The translations under genes were made by a program, and so were the position numbers. DNA of 64,000 bases from a virus. The stretch is from IMG/VR virus record IMGVR_UViG_3300047560_001714, positions 123,936 through 187,935 of that record. One strand, given 5' to 3'. Of this stretch, positions 1 through 56,360 are shown in pieces (within the stretch, counting starts at the first letter, position 1; the number at the start of each line of letters is the position of its first letter). Below the pieces are notes generated by a model that was not told where the DNA came from, did no database searches, and saw nothing but the letters and a program-made list of their open reading frames with translations.

Positions 1-3000
1 ATCACTTACGATCTTGTTCTTGGTTCAAACTTTAGAACCGTTAGAGCTGCAACATCATATTTGCGTTCATATTCAAGTGTTGTACCAAGTTCGCAAAAAA
101 TACAAACAATCGCCGGGGTTAATAAAACTAGAGATTTAGCAAATGCGTTAATAACCAGCAATACTTCTGCACAAGCGACTATTAAAGCATTGTCAGCAAT
201 CGTAACAGGGGTAATATTTGATGGTATTACTTATGCACCATCTTTAGTATATGCAAATCCAGTAGGTATTTCTGATACATCAAATATCGCAAAAGCAAAA
301 AATATTTTAATTGCAAATAGAGCATTTATACAAAATGAAATTACCGCGTACATCTCGGCCACCTATTCAATCAAATTAATCAATAGATATAACGTATTGA
401 CATGTCAACGTGACGTTGGCTTGGTCGTTGATGCTATGGTTTATGATTTATTTTATGGTGGAAATAGTCAAACCAGAGATGCTGGTGAAGCATATTATGC
501 TTCTGGTGTTAGTAGTATTTTTGGTGAAGAAACGTACACTGTTGCTGCATATGGGCGATTAAAAACCGTTATACAACAAATTGTTGCTGGTACCACCGTA
601 ACAAAAACATATGGAAATACCGAAACACAAGTTACAACAAACGCACCGTCTAGTATTACATATACAGCAACAGCGACAACTAGTGCAATTACCGCAATTG
701 GTACTAAAATCATTACATGTACTAGTGTACCATCTAATATTGGGATAGGTTCACCGATTAGTGGTACAAATATACCATCTAATAGCTATGTAATTGGTTT
801 TACCGATACGACTATAACCATTTCTAATAATGTTACGACAGCGGTTGCATCAGGTGTAACATTAACGATCAATGGGTCTTTTGCAACGACATTGGCGTCA
901 TTGAGTGATATATTAATCGATTATGTGGCAAATGGTGCATATGATACGACCAGTTATATACTATCACAACCAATTGTTACCGGTCAAAGCAGTGGTTTAA
1001 TAACCGCACAATCAACTATCCTTGCAGGCAAAGCTGGTATTCAAACAAGTGTAATTGATTTCTTAAATAAAGGCGGTGGTGTATCGATTAACATAGAAAT
1101 GGGTGGTAATAAATCTATGTTAGCTAACGATTTTGCTATGGTCAATGACTTAGGCTATGCAATTTTAGCAACAAATGGTGGATTATCCGAACAGGTTTCG
1201 ACATTCTCGTATTATTGTCACACCCATTACTGGGCAAACAACGGTGGACAAATTAGATCGGTTGGTGGATCAAACGCACACGGTTCTTATGGGTTGCGTT
1301 CATCTGGCTATGACGTTACTGAGTTACCAGATTCGGTTACATTAGCAAATAATTTACTACAGACCGCTAAAATATATAAACAAGGGTCAACCGCCACATA
1401 TATGGTTGTTAACACTGACAAAACCCAAGTGGTATCGATCTGGATATACGGATATGAATATACTCCGACTAATTTATGTGAAATTGAAATAGATCATTCA
1501 TTATATGGTGGTCCTATTGCTAGATATGGGGTTTCAACAATTGAGCATACCAATATTACTATTAATGGCCAAAATGTTCTTAAAGTAAACTTTTCGTCAA
1601 CTGGTATGGATGGTACAACTGTTACTGGGTTAGCAACTGACTTATATAATGGGCAATTGGTAACTATTATTTCATTCCAAAGTGTTAAATGTTACAATAT
1701 TGATAACGTTAGACCGACTCGTCCGTCAACCGCATTGCAATATACAGATAATCTTGGAAGTATTTACCGTGTTATTTCTTATAATTTAACAGAATCAACC
1801 GGTGAAACCCTTCCAGCAAATATTGCTATTTTACAAACAGATGCTGGATTTAACTATTACCAATTACTTACCGATACATCAAGTTTAACAGTTGTTGACC
1901 CAAATGATCCCTCAAAAACACAAGGTTCAAAAGTTGGTGACACTAAAATTGCGATAGTTGCAATTTCACAAAAAGCAATTATCGACCAAATTAACAAAGG
2001 TACATATATTACCGCGTGGAGTGGAAGAATCCATAAGATATCTAGCTACACTTTACCACAAGTTATTGCAACCGGTACTTACTATAGTTGGAATAGTACA
2101 ACTAAGGTTTTAGTTGTATCATCTGTGTATGGGGTAATAGAGGTCAATGATATCGTGGTTGGTTCTGGCATTACCGGCAACCCAACTGTTGTAAGCTCAA
2201 CTTATGACTCTGAAACTCTTAGAACATCTGTTACCTTATCAACCGCATCAGGAATAACAACACCAAGTGGTTCTATTACGTTTGGTATATCCGCAAATGC
2301 ATATATTTCAATTGAATCCACACCAATCGCAAATAATTCTGCCGATGGAACTGTTATATCAGCACTTACACACAAAAGTACAGCAACACAATTAAATAGT
2401 TTGACCGCAAAAACGGTTACTTTTGATATACCATACAGTCAATACAACGTTGTACCAGCAATTGACAGTTATGTTACAATTGCTAATAATGCAACGACCG
2501 CATTTAATGGAACTTATCAAGTTATCGGTAATATTAGTCAAACTGAAATAGCGGTATCCTCTGTTTCAACACTAGCCGTTGGTATGGTTATATTACCACC
2601 GTCTATTAGTGGGGTTACCGCAAGTGGAAACGGGACCTCTATAACCTTTACCTTTGCATCACAAGCATCAATGCCATTTGTTGTTGGCGGTTCAATTAAA
2701 GTTGCAGGTATTATTCCAACCGCATATAATGGTGTGTATACTATTACTGGTGTTAGCTCAACATACATTACGGTTGCCGGAACCGTTGCTAGCTCAATAA
2801 CACAAACTGGTATTATATCTGCACACGATGGGTATATTCCTGATAGTTGTATTATTCAATCAATTAATAGCTCAACTAACTCTTTTGTGGTTAGTCCAGC
2901 GTGCTGGGTGCCATCGAATACGGTGATCAATGCTATTTTATTAGCAACACTAAAAGATATTACTATCGTAAATGGTGGTTCAAATTATTCTTCCACTATT

Positions 3001-6000
3001 CCACCAACTATTTCTATAACAGGTGGTGGTGCGTTAGTTAATGCCCAAGCAACCTGTGTGGTAATTGATGGAACTATTTCAAAAATTGTTATAATTAGCA
3101 CAGGGTATGGTTATACCAGCGTACCTGCGGTGGCGGTGGCTGGTAATGCTATCCTAACCGCTAGTATAACAAATACCACGTCAACGACCTTAACCGCTAA
3201 TAGTGGTATTAATACCACCGCCATTGCATTAAGTTATGCGAGTGACCCAGGTACATTTACACTTGGAAGTGGTGCAAACGTACTTACATTATCGGCGGCT
3301 AGTACGGTAACAACTGCTAATCCAGATGTGCCGGAATATCCATATTACGATGTTACATTTACCACCACTGGAACCGCACAAACTGTCGGTAACTACTTCA
3401 GAATAACTGGTAATAATAATGCATTATACAATGGATTCTGGAAATGTACTGCAAGTGCAGCAAACTCGTTGACATTACGCATGCCATTAGATCCAGGTAA
3501 GGCTGGTACAGCCACAGAAACCACAAATGCAACCGCATCTATGGCTACTTCTAGCATTGCTGGTACAACCTTAACCATCGGTGGTGCTGTCACAGGCACG
3601 GTGGCTATTGGTATGTACTTAACAGGTGGTACTATCCCATCTGGAACTTATATTACTAGCGGTTCTGGCACAACATGGACTATTAACCAAAGTGTTACAC
3701 AAGCATCAACAACGATAACTGGAACTAACAATCTAATTACGTTGGGGTCATCAAATGGTCTTTCGGTTGGTGATCAAATTATATTTACTGGAACATCATT
3801 TGGTGGTATAACAGCGTCAACCGTATATTATATCAGTGAGGTGGTATCATCAACACAGATATCTATAACAACTAGTTCTACCACACCAGCAGCAAGTGCA
3901 AATGTCACATTAACAACAGCCACTGGAATTATGTCATTCTATACCAATAAAGCAAATTTTGGTCATACCTATACGGTATCGTCATTTGCTAGTAAAACTG
4001 GTACAGGACCATACTTAGTTACGTTAAATATTCCAACTGTGGTTACACCAATATTAGTTGGAAGTAAATGGATAGTTGCTGGTAACGCTACCACAGCATA
4101 CAACGGAACTTACACCGTAACCGCAAGTACAACTAGTACAGTTCAGTTGAGTTATTCTAGTGATCCCGGTACCTATGGTGCTGGTACAACCACTATTATT
4201 AACACTTCGGTTGCAACACTTGAGATAACCGGTGCGACAAGTAATGGAATCGGTATCAGTAAACCATTCTCCACCGCGACACAAGCAACTTTACGTGCTG
4301 GATATGCTGCAAATGTTACCGCGCAAATTACAACTCGAATCAGTACATGTCGTGCAACATCGCACGATTTCTTAGATATTGGTACTGGTGGATACAGTAC
4401 ATCGAACTATCCATATCAAATTTACGGAAACCCAGCGCAATCAAAAGATCAATCAAAAGAGATTAAAGAAGATGGTGTTGGGCGTGTGTTTTATGTTAGT
4501 ACTGACCAAGATGGTATTTTCCGAGTTGGTCGATTCTTTACTGTTGACCAAGGAACTGGTTCTGTAACATTTAGTTCTAACTTTGCGTTATCAAATATTG
4601 ATGGGTTAGGATTTAAAACTGGCGCCGTTGTTCGTGAATTCTCAACCGATAGTACAATGACAACGAACGCATCTGATGTTATACCAGTTCAAAGTGCTAT
4701 TCGTGGATATATTGACAAACGCCTTGGTATAGATCACGGTGGTAATCCATTAGTTGCTAGGGATTTGGTCGGTCCAGGCTACCTACCATTAACTGGTATT
4801 ATTGCAATGAAAGGTACCTTATTAATGGGTGGGAACTCGATTACTAACTTACCATTACCATCATTGTCTGGTGATGCTGCCAATAAAGCATATGTCGATT
4901 CATTAAATTTATTAAGTAAACTTGGTGACGTTGACACTCTTACAAACGCACCTTCAAATGGCCAATTTTTTGTATTTGATGGAACCACCTCAAAATGGAA
5001 AAATTCATCTATATCTGGAAATGTAGCTATAACATATTCTGGTGGTGTGCTTAGTACAGCAATCAATACTGGTGTTATTACTGATTCAATGATTAATAGT
5101 AATGCGGCGATTGCACAAAGTAAACTAAGTTTAAATGCCGCGACAACACGAGTAAGTGCAGCTGGAATTGCCCAATCTGACCGTGGATTAGCAAGTTTCA
5201 ACAATACCCAATTTACAGCAACCAATGGATGGATCGAGTTACAATCCGCAACATCGGCCGCAACCGGTGTTACTTATAGTAAAATACAGTATATGAGTAA
5301 TGGTACCGTATTGGGTAACAATACTGGTGCAGCTGCAGTACCACGCGAAATAACATTTGGTGATGTTGTAACAAACGGTAATGGATTGAAAAATACATCA
5401 TTTGCGTTCTCAGGTATTGTATCAGTGACTTATGATGGGTCAAATACCGCAAATAACACATACACCTCTCAGGCTGTTACAACCATCGGGGCTAGTGATA
5501 GTTTGGTAAAAACTGACAATGCTGGAAAAATTGATGTTACCGCATTGAAAATCGATGGAAAGTTGATTATTGATACAACCGCGTCACCAGCTAGTGTTGA
5601 TTTCTACACACCAAACACATATAAATTTATGTCATCCACTGGTACAACGTCATCGGACACAGTTACAACCACCTTTGGTACATTGGATACTGGTACTGGA
5701 ACATTAAAAACCACGACCATCACATCTGGATTGACAAACTTAGTTCAAAACCAAGGTACCATTACCGGTAATTGGCGTATGACGTCTGGTAGTATATTAG
5801 ATTTAAATACCAATTCTACCACATTAAAAGCCTATAACATTACGACAGATGGTACTGATACTGGTGCTGGCACAATTCAAGGGGCTTGGACCTTAACTGG
5901 TGCTAGTAAGTTACAAGCGACTTATGCTGATTTGGCCGAATTCTATGAAGGTGACAAAGAATATGAACCAGGTACCGTGCTTGTATTTGGCGGTGATAAA

Positions 6001-6300
6001 GAAGTCACGATCTCAACATCGGTAAACGATACCGCGTTGGCTGGTGTCGTGACAACAAATCCAGCATACATTATGAATGCAGAACAAGCTGGTAACAGAA
6101 ACTGTATTGCATTGATAGGTAGAACACCTTGCAAAGTCATTGGTAGAATTAAAAAAGGTGAATTACTAACAACATCTAATACACCAGGATATGCGGTTAA
6201 AGCATTAAATCCAACATTGGGTGCTATTATTGGTAAAGCATTGGAAAACAAAGACTACGGTGAAGCCGGTGTAATTGAAATTGCCGTAGGGAGAGCATAA
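1..6300 (+). CDS. Very large tail fibre/virion structural protein, 5'-partial; C-terminal intramolecular-chaperone-like domain
   Basis: Frame is open from base 1 (ITYDLVLGSNF...). S/T/G-rich beta repeats with several A(Y/F)NG(T/V)Y modules. C-terminus YADLAEFYEGDKEYEPGTVLVFGG...IIGKAL is typical of phage tail IMC-like domains. Confidence 0.8.
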   Translation: MTYDLVLGSNFRTVRAATSYLRSYSSVVPSSQKIQTIAGVNKTRDLANALITSNTSAQATIKALSAIVTGVIFDGITYAPSLVYANPVGISDTSNIAKAKNILIANRAFIQNEITAYISATYSIKLINRYNVLTCQRDVGLVVDAMVYDLFYGGNSQTRDAGEAYYASGVSSIFGEETYTVAAYGRLKTVIQQIVAGTTVTKTYGNTETQVTTNAPSSITYTATATTSAITAIGTKIITCTSVPSNIGIGSPISGTNIPSNSYVIGFTDTTITISNNVTTAVASGVTLTINGSFATTLASLSDILIDYVANGAYDTTSYILSQPIVTGQSSGLITAQSTILAGKAGIQTSVIDFLNKGGGVSINIEMGGNKSMLANDFAMVNDLGYAILATNGGLSEQVSTFSYYCHTHYWANNGGQIRSVGGSNAHGSYGLRSSGYDVTELPDSVTLANNLLQTAKIYKQGSTATYMVVNTDKTQVVSIWIYGYEYTPTNLCEIEIDHSLYGGPIARYGVSTIEHTNITINGQNVLKVNFSSTGMDGTTVTGLATDLYNGQLVTIISFQSVKCYNIDNVRPTRPSTALQYTDNLGSIYRVISYNLTESTGETLPANIAILQTDAGFNYYQLLTDTSSLTVVDPNDPSKTQGSKVGDTKIAIVAISQKAIIDQINKGTYITAWSGRIHKISSYTLPQVIATGTYYSWNSTTKVLVVSSVYGVIEVNDIVVGSGITGNPTVVSSTYDSETLRTSVTLSTASGITTPSGSITFGISANAYISIESTPIANNSADGTVISALTHKSTATQLNSLTAKTVTFDIPYSQYNVVPAIDSYVTIANNATTAFNGTYQVIGNISQTEIAVSSVSTLAVGMVILPPSISGVTASGNGTSITFTFASQASMPFVVGGSIKVAGIIPTAYNGVYTITGVSSTYITVAGTVASSITQTGIISAHDGYIPDSCIIQSINSSTNSFVVSPACWVPSNTVINAILLATLKDITIVNGGSNYSSTIPPTISITGGGALVNAQATCVVIDGTISKIVIISTGYGYTSVPAVAVAGNAILTASITNTTSTTLTANSGINTTAIALSYASDPGTFTLGSGANVLTLSAASTVTTANPDVPEYPYYDVTFTTTGTAQTVGNYFRITGNNNALYNGFWKCTASAANSLTLRMPLDPGKAGTATETTNATASMATSSIAGTTLTIGGAVTGTVAIGMYLTGGTIPSGTYITSGSGTTWTINQSVTQASTTITGTNNLITLGSSNGLSVGDQIIFTGTSFGGITASTVYYISEVVSSTQISITTSSTTPAASANVTLTTATGIMSFYTNKANFGHTYTVSSFASKTGTGPYLVTLNIPTVVTPILVGSKWIVAGNATTAYNGTYTVTASTTSTVQLSYSSDPGTYGAGTTTIINTSVATLEITGATSNGIGISKPFSTATQATLRAGYAANVTAQITTRISTCRATSHDFLDIGTGGYSTSNYPYQIYGNPAQSKDQSKEIKEDGVGRVFYVSTDQDGIFRVGRFFTVDQGTGSVTFSSNFALSNIDGLGFKTGAVVREFSTDSTMTTNASDVIPVQSAIRGYIDKRLGIDHGGNPLVARDLVGPGYLPLTGIIAMKGTLLMGGNSITNLPLPSLSGDAANKAYVDSLNLLSKLGDVDTLTNAPSNGQFFVFDGTTSKWKNSSISGNVAITYSGGVLSTAINTGVITDSMINSNAAIAQSKLSLNAATTRVSAAGIAQSDRGLASFNNTQFTATNGWIELQSATSAATGVTYSKIQYMSNGTVLGNNTGAAAVPREITFGDVVTNGNGLKNTSFAFSGIVSVTYDGSNTANNTYTSQAVTTIGASDSLVKTDNAGKIDVTALKIDGKLIIDTTASPASVDFYTPNTYKFMSSTGTTSSDTVTTTFGTLDTGTGTLKTTTITSGLTNLVQNQGTITGNWRMTSGSILDLNTNSTTLKAYNITTDGTDTGAGTIQGAWTLTGASKLQATYADLAEFYEGDKEYEPGTVLVFGGDKEVTISTSVNDTALAGVVTTNPAYIMNAEQAGNRNCIALIGRTPCKVIGRIKKGELLTTSNTPGYAVKALNPTLGAIIGKALENKDYGEAGVIEIAVGRA

Positions 6301-13914: not shown

Positions 13915-13922
13915 TATTTATA
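13915..13922 (-). promoter_or_regulatory. T4-like late promoter TATAAATA upstream of phoH
   Basis: The + strand reads TATTTATA at 13915-13922. Confidence 0.5.
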
Positions 13923-16718: not shown

Positions 16719-16747
16719 TTGACAGGTTACTCTAATTATTGTATAAT
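16719..16747 (+). promoter_or_regulatory. Consensus sigma70 promoter for dnaJ-clpA
   Basis: TTGACA-N17-TATAAT. Confidence 0.85.
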
Positions 16748-16780: not shown

Positions 16781-17626
16781 ATGACACATTATTCAACATT
16801 AGGCGTTTCTGAAAACGCATCTCAAGACGAAATTAAACAAGCATATCGTCGATTAGCAAATAAACATCACCCCGACAAAGGCGGCGATCAAGCAACATTC
16901 AAATCAATATCAGCCGCATACGATGTGGTGGGCGACCCCCAAAAACGTGCGGAATATGATAATCATCAACGATATGAACAAATGGGGCATTCATTTGGTG
17001 GAGGTGGCTTTGCACATTTTCATCAAGGAAACTTTCATGATATATTTGGGCACGCATCACCATTTGGTGACATGTTTGGTAGACGCGCCGTTCATAAAAA
17101 CCGAGACTTAAATTTAAACTGTACAATATCACTTGCCGATTCCTTTATCGGTAAGCAATTTGAAACTAGATATAGATTACCAAGTGGTAATGAATCTAGT
17201 GTTGTAATTTCTGTACCAGCAGGGGTTGCAAATGGTGATACAATAAAGTATAATGGTTTGGGTGATGACACTATTAGTAATATCCCTCGCGGAAACTTAA
17301 ATATAACTATTTTAGTACAGCATGACGAAAAATTTGACAGAGTGGGCGATGACCTGTATACTACTGTCGAAATCAACCCAATCGAAGCAATAATTGGATG
17401 TACAAAGCAAGTACAAACAATTACCGGTGCAATGACAAAAGTTGATATTCGTCCAGGTGTTGAAACCGGCACCGAATTTGCAAAACCAGGTGGTGGATTC
17501 AAAAATATCCATACCAACATGCTAGGTAGGTTTGTGGTACTTGTTAAGATTAAAACACCAACTATCACTGACCGAGATTTACTCTCACAACTTAGCGATA
17601 TAAACAATAAACTTAATTCACTTTAA
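16781..17626 (+). CDS. dnaJ: J-domain co-chaperone (DnaJ/CbpA-type, no zinc finger)
   Basis: YSTLGV...[21 protein letters not shown]-rich linker, DnaJ_C-like GDDLY segment. Confidence 0.9.
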
Positions 17627-17642
17627 CAACGAGGTATACAAT

Positions 17643-19910
17643 ATGGTAGAGCCAAGCGCAGAATTTGAAGCAGTACTAGGTGTAGCGTTAGAAACAGCAA
17701 AAGACTTGCATCATGAATACATTACATTAGAGCATGTGATGCATGCAATGTTGTCAAGTGAAGATTTCACTTCATATCTAGTGGGATATGGGTGTAATGT
17801 TAGTACACTAAAATCTAAACTTGTGGCACATTTACAAAATAAATGTGACGACATTATTAGCAAGACACGTGTTGAAACGCCTCGTAAGACACCAGCATTT
17901 GAACGAATGTTAAATAAAGTGTTCACGCAAGTAATCTTTAACAATAGACAAAAAGTCGAAGTTACTGATGCGTTTTTAACTATGTTAGCCGAAAAAAATT
18001 CGTGGGCTGTATATTATGCTAGTGAGGCGGGAATCGATAAAGCAAAATTTGCGGATTATATTCAAACTAATGCAATTCTCGATGCCCCTGTACCATCCGG
18101 TAACGACAAACGGTCAACTAAAGCATTGCAAGCATTCGCAACGAATCTAAACGACGAAGTTAACAAAGGAAAAATCGATCCGGTAATTGGTCGTGCAAAT
18201 GAGCTTGAAAATATTGCGTTAGCGTTGGGCAGACGTAGTAAAAATAATGTTATCCTAGTCGGTGACCCAGGCGTTGGTAAAACTGCGATTGCCGAAGGTT
18301 TGGCACACAATATTGTAAATGATGTGGTACCAGAATTCCTAAAAGGATATACTGTGTACAACTTAGATATTTCTGCAATGTTAGCTGGATCTAAATATCG
18401 TGGTGATTTTGAAGAACGCTTTAAACAAGTTATCAAAGCATTGGATGAAAAAGGTAAAACCGTATTATTCATCGATGAAGCACACATGATTAATGGTGCC
18501 GGTGCTGGGCAAAATTCTGCCAATGATTTGGCAAATATGATGAAACCAGCATTAAGTAAAGGTAACATTAAAGTAATTGCATCGACAACATGGGATGAGT
18601 ATCGTAAACATTTTGAAAAAGATCGTGCATTAATGCGTCGTTTCCAACGAATCACAGTTGATGAACCATCACAAGAAATGACATTCAAGATTCTAAGTGG
18701 TATTAAAAAATACTATGAAAAACATCACGATGTTAAAATTAAAGATTGCGCATTACATGCGGCGATTAAATTATCAGTCAAATACCAAGCTGATAAAAAA
18801 CTCCCAGATAAAGCAATTGACTTAATTGATGTTGCATGTTCACGTTTTAACTTAAAAGTTGCGGATCAGCGTGTTGTTGCTGAACGAGAAATTCAATTTG
18901 AATTGGCAAAAATGGTTAATTTACCAGAAGAGCAAGTTATGGAAACCGAAAGTGCCCATATTGCAACTCTCCAAGAAAAAATTGAAAATGATGTCTTTGG
19001 TCAAGATTTGGCATTGACTGAAATCGTTGACAAAATTATCGTTGCGCAAGCTGGATTAAAACCCGACAACAAACCAATCGGTTCATTTGTATTCATGGGT
19101 CCAACTGGTTGTGGTAAAACTGAAACAGCGAAATCATTAGCACACCACTTAAATGTTAAATTACTTAGATTCGATATGTCTGAGTATCAAGAAAAACATA
19201 GTGTTAGCAAACTATTAGGTGCACCTCCTGGGTATGCTGGTTATGATGATAATGCTGGTGCGTTGATAACACAACTCCAAGAAAATCCAAATGCGGTGTT
19301 ATTACTAGATGAAATTGAAAAATCTCACCCAGATGTATCAACCGTGTTGTTACAAATGATGGATAACGGTTTTATTACTGGTAGTAATGGTAAAAAAGCG
19401 GATTGCAGAAATATTGTAATGATTATGACAACTAATGCTGGCGCTCAATCCGCTGAAAAAAATGCAATCGGATTTGGGTCGCAAGAGAAAGCATATTCGG
19501 ATGCTGATCTAAAAAAATTCTTTACACCAGAGTTTCGTAACCGTTTGGATGGTATTATTACATTCAATAAACTTGGTAAAGAAAGTATGGTTAAAGTGGT
19601 TAATAAATTTATCGATGAAGTCAGAGCACAAGTTAAAGATAAAGGTGTTAAGATTAAATTGACAAAAGATGCCACAGCATGGTTACTTGATAACGGATTT
19701 GATCCAAAAATGGGCGCAAGACCATTACATAGATTGATTGATAAAGAAATCAAGCGTGATTTAGCAAAACTAATGTTGTTTGGCGAATTGCAAAACGGTG
19801 GAACATTAACCGTTGGCGTTGAAAATAATCAACTTTCACTATCAGTTAAACCAAAACTGGTGAAAGAATCACTACTTATAACAGTTGATACTGACGAGGT
19901 TATTATTTAA
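17643..19910 (+). CDS. clpA: ClpA-type Hsp100 AAA+ unfoldase
   Basis: N-domain HEYITLEH, two Walker sets (GDPGVGKT, GPTGCGKT), GSKYRGDFE, GAPPGYAG pore loop, IGF loop, FTPEFRNRLD; no ClpB middle domain. Confidence 0.9.
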   Translation: MVEPSAEFEAVLGVALETAKDLHHEYITLEHVMHAMLSSEDFTSYLVGYGCNVSTLKSKLVAHLQNKCDDIISKTRVETPRKTPAFERMLNKVFTQVIFNNRQKVEVTDAFLTMLAEKNSWAVYYASEAGIDKAKFADYIQTNAILDAPVPSGNDKRSTKALQAFATNLNDEVNKGKIDPVIGRANELENIALALGRRSKNNVILVGDPGVGKTAIAEGLAHNIVNDVVPEFLKGYTVYNLDISAMLAGSKYRGDFEERFKQVIKALDEKGKTVLFIDEAHMINGAGAGQNSANDLANMMKPALSKGNIKVIASTTWDEYRKHFEKDRALMRRFQRITVDEPSQEMTFKILSGIKKYYEKHHDVKIKDCALHAAIKLSVKYQADKKLPDKAIDLIDVACSRFNLKVADQRVVAEREIQFELAKMVNLPEEQVMETESAHIATLQEKIENDVFGQDLALTEIVDKIIVAQAGLKPDNKPIGSFVFMGPTGCGKTETAKSLAHHLNVKLLRFDMSEYQEKHSVSKLLGAPPGYAGYDDNAGALITQLQENPNAVLLLDEIEKSHPDVSTVLLQMMDNGFITGSNGKKADCRNIVMIMTTNAGAQSAEKNAIGFGSQEKAYSDADLKKFFTPEFRNRLDGIITFNKLGKESMVKVVNKFIDEVRAQVKDKGVKIKLTKDATAWLLDNGFDPKMGARPLHRLIDKEIKRDLAKLMLFGELQNGGTLTVGVENNQLSLSVKPKLVKESLLITVDTDEVII

Positions 19911-19917
19911 CATCTAC

Positions 19918-19954
19918 GCCCGGTTGATAAATACAATATCAACCGGGCTTTTTT
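19918..19954 (+). terminator. Intrinsic terminator with a late-promoter core inside it
   Basis: 12-bp stem GCCCGGTTGATA/TATCAACCGGGC plus T6; ATAAATA at 19927-19933. Confidence 0.7.
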
Positions 19955-20329
19955 ATGCGTATAATAGAATTACTAGAGACTATAAATTTTAAAGACGACG
20001 AATTTGTCAAACCAGTTGGCGACGAGGGAAAACGTGAAATAGCATTTGACGTTCCAGAAGATATTATTTTTTATATGCGGAACGATGATAACGCATTTCG
20101 TAATCATTTATACCCAGTAATCGCTAAATGTTTAGATTTAATTTCATCTAATAAAAAAACACACCCATCTTTATTTGCAGATGCGGTAAAAGAATGTTAT
20201 AATTCTTATATATCTGAATATCCAATCAGAGAACTAGGCAAATCTATCGATAAACAACATCATAAAGATACTTGTATTAAATTACATGATGAAGTTATTG
20301 ATGAAATCAACAATGGAAAATATGATTAA
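19955..20329 (+). CDS. Hypothetical protein, putative internal head protein (MRIIELLE leader)
   Basis: Leader ending in LLE is shared in style with neighbouring genes. Confidence 0.6.
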   Translation: MRIIELLETINFKDDEFVKPVGDEGKREIAFDVPEDIIFYMRNDDNAFRNHLYPVIAKCLDLISSNKKTHPSLFADAVKECYNSYISEYPIRELGKSIDKQHHKDTCIKLHDEVIDEINNGKYD

Positions 20330-20350: not shown

Positions 20351-20980
20351 ATGGGCGGACACGCTATTCCAAATACATCACCAATCAAAAAAGATGATTT
20401 CAATGCTATAATTGAACAATTATCAACGTATCTACCAAATGGACTACAAATTTTTCCATTTGGTAGTGCTGGTAAAAAAATAATAAGCAATGACCTAGAT
20501 CTATTCATAGATAATCATCAACTAGAGAAAATATTCGACTGCGATAATCCTAAAAAACACCTACAACAATATTTTATTAATCAAGGCCTAACATCGTCTA
20601 GGTCAGGTATTGCTGTACACGTTGGTATACCATTTGACAATACAACAATTCAAGTTGATTTAATTGCGGTTGATTATCCAATGATTATACAGCAATTACA
20701 TGACCATACATATGACGATGATACCGTATCTGGAAAAACTATCATCAGTATGTGGTGTGATTTGGCTAGAATGTCATCTCCATCTTTATTATTCAGCCCA
20801 TATACTGGATTGTTTATTAGAGATACCAGAGAATTTATCACAGCTGATAAAAACACGATCGCAAAATTTATTATTGGCCAACACGCCTCTGGTGATGATT
20901 TACGCTCGCCCTCACGAATACTAAAAGCAGTTAAAAACCAAGACGCAATTAGTGAACTAACAAATAAGTATAATCTATGA
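20351..20980 (+). CDS. Pol-beta-superfamily nucleotidyltransferase-like protein
   Basis: GSAGKKIISNDLDL (GS...DxD) plus QVDL as the third acidic residue. Confidence 0.65.
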   Translation: MGGHAIPNTSPIKKDDFNAIIEQLSTYLPNGLQIFPFGSAGKKIISNDLDLFIDNHQLEKIFDCDNPKKHLQQYFINQGLTSSRSGIAVHVGIPFDNTTIQVDLIAVDYPMIIQQLHDHTYDDDTVSGKTIISMWCDLARMSSPSLLFSPYTGLFIRDTREFITADKNTIAKFIIGQHASGDDLRSPSRILKAVKNQDAISELTNKYNL

Positions 20981-22017
20981 AAAAACTTGGCAGAGTATTT
21001 AATCACGTAGAAGATTTAACCTTTTTCTACGGGTCGGCGGGTGCGCGTGAAGCACTACAACATTTAACTGAAATTTGTGAATCACCACACCAACTTAGAA
21101 TGAAATGGGACGGTGGATGCCAAGTATATTGGGGCAGAGACGACAATAACAACTTTGTTATGGCTAGTCACAATAGTTGGGCCAGAGGAGTTGCCGCATA
21201 TACCGCTGAAGATATGGAAACCTTTATTGCTGATAACAGTGGCACTAAATCAGAACAACGTGATGCGTTTGCAAAGCAATATTCGCAACTATTTGGCATT
21301 CTTGAACAAGTTACCCCATTGCAAAGTGGATTTTATTACGCAGATGTATTATTTTACGAAAAACAGCTGCAGAGTAACTCGTATGATCTATATCCAAACT
21401 CAAAAACTGGATATCATATCAAAAAAAACACAACTATTGGGCAAATAATACCAGAATTGCAAGCATTGATGGTGTGTCATGGGTTTTTTGACGAATTTGG
21501 CGAACCTGATTCAGCACAACAGCCTATAAGTTTTGAATATTCAAAACCACCAATTGTTATTTTACCAGCCTATTACAACAAAACAGTACCATTTGTTAAT
21601 TTTCATGCACTCGACCATCTTATTAATATCAGTGATAAGGTAATTGATGAATTTCTGCAACCAATTGCTGGTGTAAGTGCATTTAAAGATTATTTGTATC
21701 AATATTCAAACTATAAAGCAAAAAGATATGAACTTGATACCCTTGGTCAAGATTTTGAACAATGGGTTTCAACAAGTAAACTTAGTTCTAACCAAAAATC
21801 TAAGATATTGGCTAGAAACTCTGAAACCAATGGTGCATCTATACTATTCAATGTTGTAAATCAGATACGAATGTTAAAAAATACAATAATTGACCAGTTA
21901 GAAACCACAATTGGTGATATTAAAGTAACTAATCCAGAAGGATGGGTTAGATATGCAGACACCACTAAACAATTTGGAAATATTAAACTAGTACCGAGGC
22001 ACACATGGCAACCATAG
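20977..22017 (+). CDS. RNA-ligase/capping-like covalent nucleotidyltransferase (DUF6267-like)
   Basis: Motif I KWDG, motif IV EGWV, motif V KLVPR. Confidence 0.6.
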   Translation: MKKLGRVFNHVEDLTFFYGSAGAREALQHLTEICESPHQLRMKWDGGCQVYWGRDDNNNFVMASHNSWARGVAAYTAEDMETFIADNSGTKSEQRDAFAKQYSQLFGILEQVTPLQSGFYYADVLFYEKQLQSNSYDLYPNSKTGYHIKKNTTIGQIIPELQALMVCHGFFDEFGEPDSAQQPISFEYSKPPIVILPAYYNKTVPFVNFHALDHLINISDKVIDEFLQPIAGVSAFKDYLYQYSNYKAKRYELDTLGQDFEQWVSTSKLSSNQKSKILARNSETNGASILFNVVNQIRMLKNTIIDQLETTIGDIKVTNPEGWVRYADTTKQFGNIKLVPRHTWQP

Positions 22018-22547
22018 GAATTAATTTTGGCAGATTTAACCCACCACACATTGGTCACATTAAAATGTGGGAATCTTTAATAAATGATAACGATTTTGCA
22101 TATATTGGACATAACCCAAACACAGTAAACAGTGATAACCCATTACCAGCAGATGAAAAAGAAACAGTAATTAAGACATTATGTCCAATAATTAAACAAC
22201 TTTACCAATCTAGTACGTTATTGACATTAGCATCACAAGCATATAGCGATACGAAGTTACTTAACGAACCATTGGAACTAAATGTGTATTCAGATGAAGA
22301 CTGGTTGATTACTGCTATTAGGTTATACAACAATAATGAAAATATGCATGGATATTTTAAATTTGACACTATCAATCAAGTTAAAACTGAACGAATTACG
22401 TCATCGACCGCTGTTAAGGAAGCAGTAACTAATGATGATAGAGAAGCATTTACATTCGCATCAGGATTTGATGCAGATACGCTAATTCAGATAAATACCA
22501 AAGGCATTAAGTTCTTTGACCTAGTGAGAGAACATATGAAAACTTAG
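22005..22547 (+). CDS. HIGH-motif cytidylyl/adenylyltransferase (NadD/CoaD-like fold)
   Basis: FGRFNPPHIGH and ITSSTAVK (ISST-type motif). Confidence 0.8.
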   Translation: MATIGINFGRFNPPHIGHIKMWESLINDNDFAYIGHNPNTVNSDNPLPADEKETVIKTLCPIIKQLYQSSTLLTLASQAYSDTKLLNEPLELNVYSDEDWLITAIRLYNNNENMHGYFKFDTINQVKTERITSSTAVKEAVTNDDREAFTFASGFDADTLIQINTKGIKFFDLVREHMKT

Positions 22548-22555
22548 GATATTTA

Positions 22556-23233
22556 ATGAAGTTACGTGAATTATTTAACAATGAAGTACTTGACGAGATG
22601 TCAATGCTCATTGGACCAGTGTCTGATTCAAAGTTGTATGACCCAGTATCAAATCATACAATTTATAAAACATATAAATCAAAAGCAGACATTATTGGTA
22701 AACTCAATAATAATATTACATTATACTATTGCACACGCGGTGGCCGCAATGCATACATGGCTGTTTATAGTGAAGGGAAACCTAACGATGAACAAATAGC
22801 TTATTTAATGGAATATTCCCGCGATACAAACCCACCTATTGGTCCACACGCCGTACAAAAATGGTTGTGGACCAATCCTAAATATCGTAATCTAATCGGT
22901 GATCTACCTACCAAGATATTCTTTGAATTAATTGACGATTATCATACCGTTACCGCCGATTTAGAACAAACCCCCGCTGGCCGTGATTTTTGGATGCGCA
23001 AAATAAAGCAAGCATTTGGTCGTGGATTAAATGTGTATTACGTCGATTTTGAAAAAAATGATTTAATACAATTGCGAACCCCTGCTGACATGAACCGAAT
23101 AAACTTTACGCATGGCGTATGGACCCCAGCTGAATCATCTCTCGATAAAGTTTTTGCAATCTCAACTAAAAAACTCACTAAACCAAAGTTCGCACCAACT
23201 AAACCAGCAAACCCGTTAGGAATAAAATTATGA
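22556..23233 (+). CDS. GNAT-like acetyltransferase with (L)xE leader
   Basis: WTNPKYRNLIG (motif A-like) and TADLEQTPAGRDFW (motif B-like); leader MKLRELFNNEVLDE. Confidence 0.5.
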   Translation: MKLRELFNNEVLDEMSMLIGPVSDSKLYDPVSNHTIYKTYKSKADIIGKLNNNITLYYCTRGGRNAYMAVYSEGKPNDEQIAYLMEYSRDTNPPIGPHAVQKWLWTNPKYRNLIGDLPTKIFFELIDDYHTVTADLEQTPAGRDFWMRKIKQAFGRGLNVYYVDFEKNDLIQLRTPADMNRINFTHGVWTPAESSLDKVFAISTKKLTKPKFAPTKPANPLGIKL

Positions 23234-24027
23234 GAGCAAGAGAATTTATATTCGAAGCAGCAATCCATGATGCTCCACCAAATGCCGTTAGTCAAGAAGA
23301 AAAACACCGATTGGCACCAAATGGACAACCAAGTAACTTGAACCCAGTTCAATATGTTCAAGTTAGAACACCTGCCTTCAAATCATGGTTCGGTAACTGG
23401 GAATCGAGTAAAACATGCAGTAAAATCCTAGATGAAAATGGTGAACCACAGGTAATGTATCACGGAACATCAGCTGATATTGCCGAATTCTCAAGTGAGT
23501 TTCTTGGTACAGGAGTGGATCAATATGGCTCTGGTTTTTATTTTACTAGTGCAAAACACACAGCATCTGGATATGCAAATGAAACTGGTGCAGTATACCC
23601 CACTTTTTTAAATGTTAGAAAACCATTACTGAATACAAAACTTGGTAGATTATCATACACACAAATTCAAAGTATTATAATGCTTTCACCAGATTTAGAT
23701 GATTCACTTGCCAATTACGGTGATGTAAAGTATGAAGGCAAACATAAAGTAATGCGTGAAGCAATCATGGCGCATTTTGAATATCAAGATGGATCGACCA
23801 CTATATTAGAAACATTACACGCATTAGGCAATGACTTTTTCAAAAATAGTGCCAGTGCGTTTTTACAAGCAATCAAACAAGTATTAAAATATGACGGGGT
23901 TATGGTCAAATTCGACAATGAAATATTTGTGGTTGCATTTGAATCAAATCAAATTAAATCTGCAATTGGTAACACTGGTGGATTTAAACGCAAGGTAAAT
24001 ACCATGACCAGCGAGGAATCACAATGA
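23230..24027 (+). CDS. ADP-ribosyltransferase-like protein (ART-PolyVal/MuF-type)
   Basis: FKSWFGNWE..SKILDENGEPQVMYHGT, GFYFT, YDGV...EIFVVAF..NQIKS; leader MRAREFIFE. Confidence 0.7.
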   Translation: MRAREFIFEAAIHDAPPNAVSQEEKHRLAPNGQPSNLNPVQYVQVRTPAFKSWFGNWESSKTCSKILDENGEPQVMYHGTSADIAEFSSEFLGTGVDQYGSGFYFTSAKHTASGYANETGAVYPTFLNVRKPLLNTKLGRLSYTQIQSIIMLSPDLDDSLANYGDVKYEGKHKVMREAIMAHFEYQDGSTTILETLHALGNDFFKNSASAFLQAIKQVLKYDGVMVKFDNEIFVVAFESNQIKSAIGNTGGFKRKVNTMTSEESQ

Positions 24028-25649
24028 GAGATATATTAAATAAACTTCAATCCATTGATGATATAGAAATGGACGAGGCCCCGCTTCCTCCAGAATGGGA
24101 TAAAGAAGTTTTCAAACCTGATTGGAACAAAGGTGTAAAGACACCAAATCAAGTATACAAAGAACGAATTAAGTATGCAGTAGAAAGAGCACAGAAACTA
24201 GGTAAAGGTTCATCGAGAACTGCGTTTGACATTGAATACGAAGGACGAGCAACCGTGCTTAAAGTCGCACATAATGCAAAAGGTATGGCGCAAAATGCCG
24301 CAGAAGCATCTGTGCTAAATGATGGATATATTGAGAGTATCGGAATTGTTATACCGCTAATTGACTACGATGAAGAACACAACCCACCAGTATGGATACA
24401 CACTGAAAAAGCAACCAAAGCAACACAGAAACAACTTTGCAGCATCATGAAATGCGGTACTCTTGAAAATTTGATTACGCTTGTTAAAATCAATGTTGGG
24501 GAACTTATGTATAGCTATACCCGAACACTAGATGAAATTCGCCAGCAATATAAATTATCAGACGACGATGTTGAAACATTGGAAGAATATGTCAATCTGG
24601 TGTCAGATTTATCAACTGGTAAAAAAGATCTTTTACTAGCAGATTTTACATTACCTGGTAACTGGGGGTTATACAATGGTAATCCGGTTATTGTTGACGT
24701 TGGCTTTACCACTGGTGTACGCCAGGCGCATTACTTCCGTGAAAATAGAGATAATAAAATGAGAGATATATTAGACAAATTAGAAAAAATTCAACTAACT
24801 GAAAGTATTCAATTAGATGAAAAATCAGTATCAAAGAACCAACAACAATTTATGGGTATGGTTCACGCTGCACAAAAAGGTGAAAAACCTGCGAGTAAAG
24901 AAGTTGCAAAAGTCGCTAAATCAATGAAGAAAAAAGATGTAACAGACTTTGCAAAAACTAAACACAAAGGTTTACCAACCAAAGTCGAAACAACAAAACA
25001 CATTCCAGATGAAGATGAAATGGCTGATGAAGAATTGTCAATGTTTTCAAGACATAACGTTGGTACACGTCGCGGTAGAGGGCAAGGGGATAACCCTTGG
25101 AATAAACTGCATAAACATGGGCGCGGTATGAAAGGTCGTACTAGAAAAGATGTAAAAGAGGAAGACGTTTCAGAAGAATGCGCAGCTGTTGGTACTATTA
25201 CTAAACAAAATACAACAAAAGATGTTAATAAAAAAACACCACAAAAAAACTTAGATGCATTCAATTTAGAAGAAGCATTAATTGATATGTATAACTCTTT
25301 GATGGAAGGTGGTATTCATCGCTTGTCAAAAGAAGCACAGAATAGTATAAAAGGTGCGGTAACAACACCAGACGCAAATAACAATGCCGGGGATGCATAT
25401 AAATCATACCGGTTTGGATTAGCATTGGCTGGTGCGCCAGACTATCCAACAAAAGCAGTGAATGATATTGGCGGTGATCCTTTGTTAACAACTTATACCG
25501 ATGAAGAAATGAAAATGGTTCAATATGCTGGAAAACAAGTTGGGGTTGGACAAATCAAACGCCTTACATCAAATAGAAGTAAAGAACGCGATGATACTAA
25601 CACACAAAGTGCAATATCACCAGCAAAGAAAAATAAGTATGGTGTATAA
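24024..25649 (+). CDS. Fusion: N-terminal protein-kinase-like domain plus C-terminal charged internal-protein region (DUF3008-like segment)
   Basis: LGKGSSR, VLK, QNAAE, LADFTLPGN, VDVG. A second MRDIL start at 24759 is followed by KNQQQFMGMVHAAQKGEKPASKEVAKVAKSM. Confidence 0.6.
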   Translation: MRDILNKLQSIDDIEMDEAPLPPEWDKEVFKPDWNKGVKTPNQVYKERIKYAVERAQKLGKGSSRTAFDIEYEGRATVLKVAHNAKGMAQNAAEASVLNDGYIESIGIVIPLIDYDEEHNPPVWIHTEKATKATQKQLCSIMKCGTLENLITLVKINVGELMYSYTRTLDEIRQQYKLSDDDVETLEEYVNLVSDLSTGKKDLLLADFTLPGNWGLYNGNPVIVDVGFTTGVRQAHYFRENRDNKMRDILDKLEKIQLTESIQLDEKSVSKNQQQFMGMVHAAQKGEKPASKEVAKVAKSMKKKDVTDFAKTKHKGLPTKVETTKHIPDEDEMADEELSMFSRHNVGTRRGRGQGDNPWNKLHKHGRGMKGRTRKDVKEEDVSEECAAVGTITKQNTTKDVNKKTPQKNLDAFNLEEALIDMYNSLMEGGIHRLSKEAQNSIKGAVTTPDANNNAGDAYKSYRFGLALAGAPDYPTKAVNDIGGDPLLTTYTDEEMKMVQYAGKQVGVGQIKRLTSNRSKERDDTNTQSAISPAKKNKYGV

Positions 25650-54821: not shown

Positions 54822-56360
54822 TTATAAAATTACAGATTCAACCAATTTTACATTGATATCATCGTTGCTTTCTAATGCAATACCAAAAATGAGACTATCG
54901 GTTGAGGTCAACGCAACTTGGGCACATCCATTATTAGACGCCACCAGTAAATCACCTTTCTTAACTGCACCAATAATTTTAACAGGTACTCTACCTTTTA
55001 ATGCTATAAAAGTTCCATCAATTAACCCTGAATTCATCATATATGCAGGATTGCCTGATACCGCCCCTAATGCACGTTTACCAAGGGTAGATTCAGTAAC
55101 CTCTTTCTCACCACCAACAACGACAACTGTTCCAATCTCATATTCCGCATCAGCCAAGTATTTTTCAGCTAAGTCAGCGTAATATGCTTTAGTTGCGGTA
55201 CCGTGAAAGAAAGTTGCTTTAATAGAACCGGGAGATATGGTAACCCCATCAACTGTTTCCTCAACCGATGTACGTGCAGCAATAGTCCCAGATGTTGCTG
55301 TTGTACTAGCTGTTTTGTATGACCCGCTTACCGATAACGAATCTGCTTGTGTTGCAACACCGCTAAAGGTCGATGCATACACAGTTGTAAATTTATGCGA
55401 ATCATCACCTAATTTTGAAACATTATTTTCACCAGGGATCACATCCACACCATTTAAAATCAATGGTGTTTTTGTTAACTTAGTAACATTGTCAAGAGTA
55501 CTCACAACTGTTGTTTTAAATACAATTTGACTGTTAAGTTGATTGAAAAAAGTTGGTGTTAATTGACCATCATTATAAACTTTTAATCGTTCATTTGGAT
55601 ACCCAACGGTGTAACCAACGTCCGCAAAATTAACTAATTGGGTAAATCTAGCACTTGCAGCACGAATGAAATCAGATGGTAAATAGCCACCTAATCGGTC
55701 AGCATTTGTTGCGGTCCCCCAGAAACGATGCGCGGTGGTGGTTTGACCTAACTGAGTATCATCTGTTGTATTTCGCAAAGTAATCCCTTGCTGTATCTTA
55801 CCAAATCCAGTAATCTGACTAGCTTGTGCTAATTCAAACATTGCATCTTTACTCACAATAAATGCAACATCATTCCCGACATATGCTGCAATTACCTGAT
55901 GAGTTGCCCCACCAGTTTGTGTTGTTGCAACAACCTCCATTGAACGCATTTCAGTGGTGGATGAGGCTTTGGTTTGTGGGCCAATTAATACGAATGCGTT
56001 ACCATCCCACGCTTTTAATTGCTGATTCGAGGTATCCCACCAAAAATCGCCTTGTGTTAACCCAGATGGTGGTGCTGTTACTGGTGCAACCTCCGCTCCG
56101 CCGGTAGTTCTAAATGATAAACCATCATAGAACTTTAATTTTTTACTGCCACTATCAAACCAAATCTGTCCTTTAATTCTGTTAGGTGGTGGGGTCGTAC
56201 CAGCAAAATTTTCTAATAAATATACAAAATTCTCATTTTGTGCTTCACCGTAGCCAGAATAATTTTTGCCAATTAGTTTAATATCCAATGTGGTGTCAAT
56301 CGTTCCATCAGCAACACTAGCTACTGGCGTGTTATTGTATGTATTAATGGTATATGCCAT
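54822..56360 (-). CDS. Tail fibre with IMC-like C-terminus
   Basis: N-terminal GKNY.GYGE..NENF..LLENFA...GQIWFD; C-terminal YADLAEKY...GTVVVVGG. Confidence 0.72.
   Translation of the reverse strand: MAYTINTYNNTPVASVADGTIDTTLDIKLIGKNYSGYGEAQNENFVYLLENFAGTTPPPNRIKGQIWFDSGSKKLKFYDGLSFRTTGGAEVAPVTAPPSGLTQGDFWWDTSNQQLKAWDGNAFVLIGPQTKASSTTEMRSMEVVATTQTGGATHQVIAAYVGNDVAFIVSKDAMFELAQASQITGFGKIQQGITLRNTTDDTQLGQTTTAHRFWGTATNADRLGGYLPSDFIRAASARFTQLVNFADVGYTVGYPNERLKVYNDGQLTPTFFNQLNSQIVFKTTVVSTLDNVTKLTKTPLILNGVDVIPGENNVSKLGDDSHKFTTVYASTFSGVATQADSLSVSGSYKTASTTATSGTIAARTSVEETVDGVTISPGSIKATFFHGTATKAYYADLAEKYLADAEYEIGTVVVVGGEKEVTESTLGKRALGAVSGNPAYMMNSGLIDGTFIALKGRVPVKIIGAVKKGDLLVASNNGCAQVALTSTDSLIFGIALESNDDINVKLVESVIL

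Follow-up and report, generated by a model that had tools for sequence, protein, structure and literature searches.

Base-excision, single-strand-break, or end-joining repair classically concludes with the paired action of a family-X DNA polymerase (PolX) and a ligase. In African swine fever virus (ASFV), Pol X (O174L, 174 residues), which is devoid of the 8-kDa and fingers domains, works alongside the ASFV DNA ligase in the virus's base excision repair (BER), and the virus packages both enzymes. In the PgVPolX protein of Phaeocystis globosa virus 16T, a functional PolX is fused to an NAD+-dependent DNA ligase, and the resulting protein fills and seals BER intermediates (PMC5537341). RNA repair offers a parallel with RlaP (PF10127), a Pol-beta-superfamily nucleotidyltransferase that is linked to Rnl and RtcB RNA ligases and extends damaged 3' ends by 1-2 nucleotides ahead of ligation (PMC12776372; PMC7824862). 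Here, we describe a gene module of this general kind in the final 64 kb (positions 123,936-187,935; hereafter the window) of the 187.9-kb viral record IMGVR_UViG_3300047560_001714 from IMG/VR. Three overlapping genes of the window, A (20351-20980), B (20977-22017), and C (22005-22547), encode predicted nucleotidyl-transferring enzymes and follow a small gene, up1 (19955-20329), all on the plus strand. From their folds, catalytic residues, and genetic linkage we infer, with moderate confidence, that up1-A-B-C is a conserved phage module that would fill and seal broken nucleic acid, the activities being predicted.

The likeness to the described systems is partial in each case. A and ASFV Pol X are both composed of a palm and a thumb only (~13% sequence identity), both are paired with a viral ligase, and the ASFV ligase AsfvLIG is found among the structural matches of B (Z scores 4.5-5.5). 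However, AsfvLIG contains an OB domain, whereas B is a DUF6267 protein with a helical insert and no OB domain, and in the phage a HIGH nucleotidyltransferase and up1 complete the module. As in PgVPolX, a PolX core and a ligase occur in one polypeptide in the A-B and B-A fusions of the phage family, but PgVPolX possesses an 8-kDa dRP-lyase domain and a LigA-type ligase, while A is devoid of the former and B matches ATP-dependent ligases. RlaP resembles A in being a Pol-beta-superfamily enzyme persistently linked to a ligase; the second subdomain of A is, however, a PolX thumb and not the RlaP helical domain (PMC12776372), and B is by sequence neither Rnl1, Rnl2, nor RtcB. The superfamilies of the three enzymes and the logic of a PolX-ligase pair are familiar. 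The previously uncharacterised elements are the branch of ligases formed by DUF6267, the PolX lineage in phages, and the fixed tie of both to a HIGH transferase and up1. The trio is not described in the surveys of polyvalent proteins and of jumbo phages.

The locus and the data set

CheckV estimates the record to be 51% complete, which at 187.9 kb points to a giant phage of ~370 kb. The whole stretch is contained in two runs of one freshwater-metagenome sample, the possible source of the DNA; the other runs listed share at most a quarter of its words and therefore point to no habitat, and no RNA data set was listed among those containing the stretch. The window encodes a family-B DNA polymerase and tail genes, and 17 tRNA genes and a tmRNA-like gene cluster outside of it, at G000:C1:62328-79477 (G000 designates the present record, G001 a complete relative of 364.5 kb, and G002 a further relative). 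Related loci were collected from IMG/VR, where at least 563 stretches encode a relative of B; 80 of these were kept and, with two obtained earlier, form a set of 82 loci. The family alignments comprise 46 proteins for A, 39 for B, and eight for C.

The original prediction, made from the sequence, had proposed three overlapping genes (junctions 20980/20977 and 22017/22005) bearing the signatures GS..DxD..D, KWDG/EGWV/KLVPR, and HIGH/ITSST. These coordinates are exact in the list of open reading frames (ORFs), and the motifs are all present, with residues that are invariant in the respective families. A and B overlap in an ATGA, and B and C overlap by 13 nucleotides, with a GAGG located 6 nucleotides ahead of the C ATG.

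Protein A resembles family-X polymerases over palm and thumb

The A protein (209 residues) exhibits the catalytic residues G38-S39, D48-L-D50, and D103, with K42-K43 after the GS motif, and the only invariant columns of its family are G38, D48, D50, Q101, and D103. Neither Pfam nor PHROG searches return a match for the window protein, DNA_pol_B_palm and DNA_pol_B_thumb included, and a single-sequence search against the PDB does not return any hit. Within the family, these two Pfam domains are reported below threshold in 3/46 and 1/46 members, respectively (best E values 0.016 and 0.0089), and PF10127 (RlaP) matches neither A nor any of the 46 members at E ≤0.1.

The AlphaFold2 model of A has a predicted local distance difference test (pLDDT) score of 96.1, and Foldseek analysis against the PDB reports 50 top hits that are all Pol lambda or Pol mu (E values from 7e-7, probability 1.0). 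A Foldseek-independent structural search returns family-X polymerases at its top nine positions, namely Pol beta (Z score 10.8, 164 residues), Thermus (Tth) PolX (10.4), Leishmania Pol beta (10.3), ASFV Pol X (PDB 5hr9; 10.3, 159/176 residues), a Pol beta palm-thumb fragment with XRCC1 (10.2), Pol lambda (9.9), the Pol beta catalytic domain with XRCC1 (9.7), TdT (9.7), and Pol mu (8.4). The aligned residues, 157-171 with Z scores of 8.4-10.8, span the PolX palm and thumb, and in the Pol beta chain they cover residues 104-335, that is, from the palm onwards. In contrast, terminal uridylyltransferases (TUTases), poly(A) polymerases, CCA-adding enzymes, and CD-NTases (cGAS/DncV-like nucleotidyltransferases) match A with Z scores ≤7.7 and through the palm only (~95 residues). 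On the strength of these palm-only alignments, assignments of A to the CCA-adding, TUTase, or CD-NTase types were rejected. Since the structural matches extend over palm and thumb, A is a reduced PolX comparable with ASFV Pol X, a minimal family-X polymerase according to its model, with a predicted polymerase activity. The original prediction had seen in A a Pol-beta nucleotidyltransferase; the superfamily was right, and the assignment can now be sharpened to family X.

A word search finds four close relatives of A, and an exhaustive profile search finds 249. With two A-family queries, the family is absent from 50,697 GenBank phage records, and essentially nothing is found in PHROGs. Searches of GenBank phages with the region (blastn) and with A and B (tblastn) did not return any match. 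In a 2022 review of phage polymerases, ASFV is the sole virus named for family X (PMC8775771). The A family would represent the first family-X polymerase lineage in bacteriophages.

Protein B defines a divergent branch of the ligase fold

The B protein (346 residues) has a single Pfam match, PF19782 (DUF6267; E value 1.7e-9), a family of no assigned function, and it has 347 viral relatives; no paper was found on DUF6267 or on its 'cytitidyltransferase' neighbour, described below. No match is returned for B with PF09511, PF09414, PF01068, or PF01653, the Pfam families of Rnl1, Rnl2, and canonical DNA ligases. The motifs of covalent nucleotidyltransferases can be read along its sequence, with K43-W-D-G46 as motif I, E321-G-W-V324 as motif IV, and K337-L-V-P-R341 as motif V. 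The residues invariant in the 39 aligned sequences are R41, K43, W44, D45, G46, D123, H168, E321, G322, V324, K331, K337, and R341, and the family possesses an invariant N-terminal motif of its own, GRxFNHxEDL. In the AlphaFold2 model (pLDDT 93.7), an N-terminal helix is followed by a β-rich core and then by ~100 residues of helical insert (~205-307), and the chain closes with two strands. The candidate motifs lie on strands: D123 (III-like) on 118-126, H168/F171 (IIIa-like) on 163-171, E321-G-W-V (IV) on 322-325, and K337 (V) on 335-338. The invariant residues are therefore, in the model, candidates for ligase motifs I, III, IIIa, IV, and V.

Foldseek returns weak matches for B. When the model is compared with 48,161 representative chains, the top 19 matches are all ligases (covalent nucleotidyltransferases), with Z scores of 4.8-7.2: NgrRnl (7.2), REL1 (7.0), T4 Rnl2 (6.1), Trl1 (5.8), and DNA ligases (4.8-5.7). 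Upon re-alignment against the PDB, the best 50 entries comprise nothing but ATP-dependent ligases of RNA or DNA (Z scores 5-7.4), headed by NgrRnl (Z scores 7.1-7.4 over 177-179 residues), and the aligned lengths in the ligase comparisons are 131-188 residues. Although each Z score is modest, a list made up of ligases only cannot be due to chance. B is thus, on its modelled structure, a divergent ligase-fold enzyme of a new branch, with a predicted ligase-type activity, and DUF6267 becomes recognizable as a ligase-fold family tied to a HIGH nucleotidyltransferase.

The proteins closest to B in structure, NgrRnl (Rnl5) and Trypanosoma brucei REL1 (Z scores 7.0-7.4 over 177-188 residues) together with T4 Rnl2, share with it the KxDG lysine, the EGxV and K..K motifs, and the lack of an OB domain. 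They differ from B by the absence of any detectable sequence similarity, and B possesses in addition the ~100-residue insert between motifs IIIa and IV and the GRxFNHxEDL motif. B ends five residues past R341, just after motif V, and the helical insert is the sole extra domain of the model; it therefore has no OB domain with motif VI, and its architecture is like that of RNA ligases.

Protein C and its partner up1

Regarding C (180 residues), two motifs identify the superfamily, GRFNPPHIGH (H15-I-G-H18) and RITSST (I131-T-S-S-T135), and the residues G9, R10, H15, G17, H18, R130, and S133 are invariant in the eight aligned proteins. C scores 20.2 bits against Pfam CTP_transf_like (PF01467; cut-off 21), which is matched by 7/8 family members at E ≤0.01, and PHROG analysis assigns it to phrog_395/3041, 'cytidyltransferase' (5e-8). 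Its profile returns from the PDB 2qjt (1.8e-3), followed by 1lw7 and 1f9a; these NadM, NadR, and archaeal nicotinamide mononucleotide adenylyltransferases (NMNATs) share with C the ATP-binding motif GRFxPxHxGH and a second motif, [IL]-[ST]-S-[AS]-T. The NCBIfam NMNAT and NaMNAT models, however, score only 14-23 bits against equivalog cut-offs of 112-409. With superfamily motifs and scores so far below the cut-offs, C belongs to the HIGH superfamily, nearest to NMNAT, without being an NMNAT equivalog. In the ESM Atlas, its structural neighbours are viral CTP_transf_like clusters (TM scores 0.8-0.9), and some C-like clusters are fused to an AAA_33/Zeta P-loop kinase, NTP_transf_2, PAP2, or DUF5824. 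C is accordingly classified as a HIGH nucleotidyltransferase, its fold being predicted from the motifs and the ESM Atlas look-up. Unlike the phage pair of NadV and NMNAT that salvages NAD, C has no nicotinamide phosphoribosyltransferase (NAMPT) partner in the genomes checked; what accompanies it with conservation is a ligase-like enzyme together with up1. Outside the window, the C profile has a second, weak match (E value 0.003) at G000:C1:40509-41600, which may represent another HIGH-family enzyme.

The up1 protein (124 residues) has no recognized fold: it returns no Pfam, PHROG, or PDB match, the profile search against the PDB giving noise. It exhibits a conserved motif, EDLxFFMxNDxxFYRxHLYP, and in 39 of the 82 loci its gene directly precedes A or B. 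It is found in 38/55 loci that hold C and in 0/25 loci that hold only A and B, and in G001, where C has been relocated, up1 is directly upstream of C. Thus, up1 is a fourth member of the module that co-varies with C.

The genes stay together and become fused

The gene order A>B>C on one strand is kept in 80/82 loci, of which 27 are ABC, 28 BC, and 25 AB; in the other two, both at contig ends, B stands alone. G001 is an AB locus whose C gene is found elsewhere in the genome. Fusions tell the same story. Among 150 A-family representatives, 20 are A-B and three are B-A fusions, and A-B-C triple fusions are found in P0187 (with the families' own profiles) and P0266 (with Pfam). P0266 (877 residues) comprises an A-like segment (19-220), DUF6267 (254-616), and CTP_transf_like (from 637), which is the order of the genes in the window. 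B is fused to C in L080, and an ESM Atlas cluster likewise combines CTP_transf_like and DUF6267. Other fusion partners are GNAT, a sigma-70 region 4 helix-turn-helix, NUDIX, and Cu/Zn superoxide dismutase; P0218 joins A-like domains to CTP_transf_like and NUDIX, and P0275 shows a weak HAD-like (DUF2608) match upstream of A-B.

The conserved order and the fusions support the view that A, B, and C form one functional unit. The trio had been described as three unrelated nucleotidyl-transfer folds belonging to a single pathway: the structural searches of A and B and the profile and ESM Atlas matches of C bear out the former, and the neighbourhood survey agrees with the co-location that the latter implies.

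In P0040 (542 residues) and a viral ESM Atlas cluster of 65 members, DUF6267 is joined to Cu/Zn superoxide dismutase, an odd partner that hints at oxidative damage.

Cyanophage relatives and ligase content

Beyond giant phages, the cyanophage-type DUF6267 protein is encoded in ~410 GenBank phage records, mostly of T4-like phages of Synechococcus and Prochlorococcus, where its gene abuts or overlaps one annotated 'cytitidyltransferase'. The B-C pair is the old core of the module. In phage S-CAM4, this pair lies inside the replication cluster gp43-uvsX-gp41-MazG-...-gp61, between gp41 and gp61, and in phage Melnitz one small gene separates the B and C homologues. Neither S-CAM4 nor Melnitz returns a match with PF01068, PF01653, or PF09511, that is, with a canonical ATP- or NAD-dependent DNA ligase or with Rnl1. 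This agrees with a 2010 review that reports no g30 homologues in cyanomyoviruses, while leaving distant ones possible (PMC2984593). The DUF6267-HIGH pair is a testable candidate for the DNA sealing function of cyanomyoviruses that this review left open.

The situation differs in the giant phages. G000 encodes a canonical ATP-dependent DNA ligase (G000:C1:95894-96481; PF01068, 67.5 bits, in a 453-residue frame), and G001 and G002 also encode one besides DUF6267, so that B is not simply the replicative ligase of this clade. No canonical RNA ligase is found in the available half of the G000 genome, and no AAA_33/Pnkp-type kinase in G000 or in the complete relative G001. NAMPT and nicotinate phosphoribosyltransferase (NAPRTase) are absent from G000, G001, S-CAM4, and Melnitz, which therefore encode no NAD salvage pathway.

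A leader sequence in relatives of the module

The original prediction had remarked that the trio lacks the leader seen in neighbouring genes. This is true in the window, where A, B, and C start with MGGHAI, MKKLGR, and MATIGI, respectively, instead of an M-[RK]-x-x-E-[LFI] leader. Elsewhere, most B and C homologues do carry it, beginning MR(L/Y/F/A)x(E/D)(L/F)...E, and many A homologues begin M-I-L-x-E-GGN. The leader is also found on up1 (MRIIELLE), on the downstream genes D and ART-PolyVal, and on at least 13 ORFs on both strands of the 188 kb record (for instance G000:C1 380-880, 22877-23332, 54954-56300, and 59938-60351). Being spread over the record, it is a genome-wide tag and not specific to the cluster. 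In the subclade formed by the window and L002/3, L009-12, L015, L019, and L053, the leader is lost from A, B, and C, which are translationally coupled, and up1 alone keeps it.

The T4 gp21-type prohead protease cleaves after L/I-x-E. G001 encodes a prohead protease of this type, which fits the L/I-x-E leaders, and a role of the leader in capsid targeting is plausible in the relatives from its sequence. In leader-bearing relatives, the phage head may take up the enzymes and inject them with the genome, in which case the module may amount to a repair kit delivered along with the DNA.

What the module may do

If we assume that the module fills and seals broken nucleic acid, A would supply the missing nucleotide(s) to a 3'-OH, either within a gap or at a terminus. 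B would form a Lys43-bound nucleoside monophosphate (NMP) intermediate, activate the 5'-phosphate, and seal the nick. Together, C and up1 would make or regenerate an NMP-phosphate-X (NAD+-like) nucleotidyl donor for B, or else nucleotidylate the 5'-phosphate directly. Reading A-B in this way follows the PolX-ligase logic and the precedents of ASFV and PgVPolX. DNA would be a likelier substrate than RNA, in the form of phage-genome sites with single-strand gaps or breaks; it is somewhat favoured by the PolX thumb of A, the location of B-C among replication genes in cyanophages, and the lack of a Pnkp-type kinase in G000 and G001. If the enzymes work as predicted, A and B (209 and 346 residues) would be very small fill-and-seal enzymes and may be useful tools.

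HIGH transferases make NMP-phosphate-X compounds, the class to which the donors of covalent ligases belong, NAD+ itself being AMP-NMN. This match between the chemistry of C and the donor class makes donor supply or regeneration chemically attractive. The role of C is nevertheless the weak point of the fill-and-seal reading: no LigA is listed among the matches of B, C falls far below the NMNAT cut-offs, and no NAMPT is encoded, so that donor supply is left without direct support. Several other findings weigh against this reading as well. A is devoid of the 8-kDa dRP-lyase and fingers domains. All Z scores of B are below 8, and no sequence link ties B to any solved ligase, since single-sequence and profile searches against the PDB give noise and hhalign of the B alignment against T4 Rnl2 gives no signal (probability 0.4%). 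NAD+-dependent LigA is not among the listed structural matches of B, an absence from a list that does not amount to exclusion. Moreover, the record already encodes the canonical DNA ligase described above. Finally, a lean towards RNA is seen in the best matches of B, which are RNA ligases (NgrRnl 7.4, REL1 7.0, Rnl1/Rnl2 ~6.1) as compared with DNA ligases at ≤6.0, a Z gap of ~1, in its missing OB domain, and in the 17 tRNA genes, whose products an RNA-repair system could protect.

These last points form the basis of an RNA (tRNA) repair reading, in which A would restore lost 3' nucleotides like RlaP, B would represent a new family of nick-sealing RNA ligases, C and up1 would process or activate the ends, and the whole would counter host anticodon nucleases and RNases of that kind. 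We regard this alternative as a serious, though less likely, rival. It draws on NgrRnl, REL1, and T4 Rnl2/Rnl1 as the closest folds of the OB-less B, on the established theme of a Pol-beta nucleotidyltransferase working with an RNA ligase, as in the 1-2 nucleotide additions of RlaP to damaged RNA (PMC12776372; PMC7824862), on the tRNA genes in a genome half that holds no canonical RNA ligase, and on the C-like domains fused elsewhere to AAA_33/Zeta kinase and PAP2 phosphatase domains. Yet A matches family-X DNA polymerases over palm and thumb, while RNA-specific nucleotidyltransferases share its palm only, and it does not match PF10127; no kinase of the AAA_33/Pnkp type is found in G000 or G001; and the B-C core sits among the DNA replication genes of cyanophages that have no DNA ligase. 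Another proposal is that B, with C, serves these phages as their replicative DNA ligase or as one for general use, and so would be the gp30 equivalent that cyanomyoviruses seem to miss; giant phages would have retained it as a specialized second ligase, A being a later addition. The ~410 GenBank records with DUF6267 beside 'cytitidyltransferase', the position between gp41 and gp61 in S-CAM4, the absence of PF01068, PF01653, and PF09511 from S-CAM4 and Melnitz, and the distant g30 homologues left possible in the review (PMC2984593) all speak for it. It is rendered improbable, however, by the coexistence of DUF6267 with a canonical ligase in G000, G001, and G002, so that the two are not complementary, by the lack of an OB or DNA-binding domain in B, and by the ability of T4-type replication to use the host ligase (PMC2984593). 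A bolder version of the fill-and-seal reading, for which we see a small chance, would make B and C a self-contained, cofactor-regenerating ligase system, in which C and up1 supply the NAD+ or analogue that charges Lys43 of the OB-less B, and sealing goes on despite NAD+/ATP depletion by host defences; B-C would then be the missing DNA ligase of T4-like cyanophages, and A the first phage family-X lineage.

Lastly, the trio might act in a nucleotide or NAD conflict, by making, capping, or destroying a signal or NAD derivative, or by nucleotidylating host proteins. The original prediction had entertained two forms of this idea, the synthesis or neutralisation of a second messenger and a nucleotide/NAD-type capping that supplies the adjacent ART. 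The nearness of C to NMNAT, the P0218 protein with its A-like, CTP_transf_like, and NUDIX domains, and the ART-PolyVal gene located one gene downstream of C in the window point in this direction, and Pol-beta nucleotidyltransferases of polyvalent proteins are predicted to modify proteins (PMC5512222). Homologues of ART and of the gene preceding it (D) are, however, found in 0/82 related loci, which speaks against a supply of ART; neither the folds nor the fusions hint at second-messenger synthesis; and no NAMPT or NAPRTase is encoded in G000, G001, S-CAM4, or Melnitz. A resembles templated polymerases and has only the palm in common with CD-NTases and AMPylators, and B resembles polynucleotide ligases. 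A conflict role is thus very unlikely, and the capping-for-ART, second-messenger, and protein-AMPylation readings have little support. The fill-and-seal reading remains the one that we favour.

Transcription signals and neighbouring genes

A strong intrinsic-terminator-like hairpin (19918-19948, plus strand; 12 bp stem with seven GC pairs, followed by a T run) separates a ClpB-like gene from up1, with which the tightly packed gene run begins. From its sequence, this hairpin is likely the upstream boundary of an up1-A-B-C transcription unit. Upstream of it lies one unit that comprises a DnaJ-like gene (16781-17626) followed by a double AAA+ gene of the ClpB/ClpA-like kind (17643-19910), with a perfect sigma-70 consensus promoter at its start (16719-16747, 12/12) and the same hairpin at its end. 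A ClpB-like gene is located at most 6 kb from the module in 37/82 related loci. Further upstream, an open frame of >2,099 residues (window 1-6300) runs off the start of the window and returns no Pfam match.

A motif search did not find the T4 late-promoter motif TATAAATA near the A-B-C trio. In the whole window, TATAAATA occurs four times as compared with 12.7 expected, at 13915, 42007, 56383 (minus strand), and 62551 (plus strand), and at least two copies closely precede the start of a minus-strand gene, one of them by 23 nucleotides (gene 54822-56360). This rarity and placement fit the use of T4-type late promoters.

Downstream of C, gene D (phrog_1349) and the ART-PolyVal gene span 22556-24027, and both bear the leader. 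Since neither has a homologue in the 82 loci, the ART neighbourhood is incidental here. In the closest relatives, L002 and L003, C is directly followed by a homologue of the second half of gene E, and D and ART therefore look like a recent insertion. The DUF3008 protein E and the DUF5824 tail carried by the C homologue of Melnitz show no significant similarity. Gene E itself (24024-25649) repeats its own start, with MRDILNKL at residue 1 and MRDILDKL at residue ~246, and relatives encode only its second half, which holds DUF3008, as a standalone gene. The repeated start and the half-length relatives indicate that E consists of two leader-headed modules joined into one ORF.

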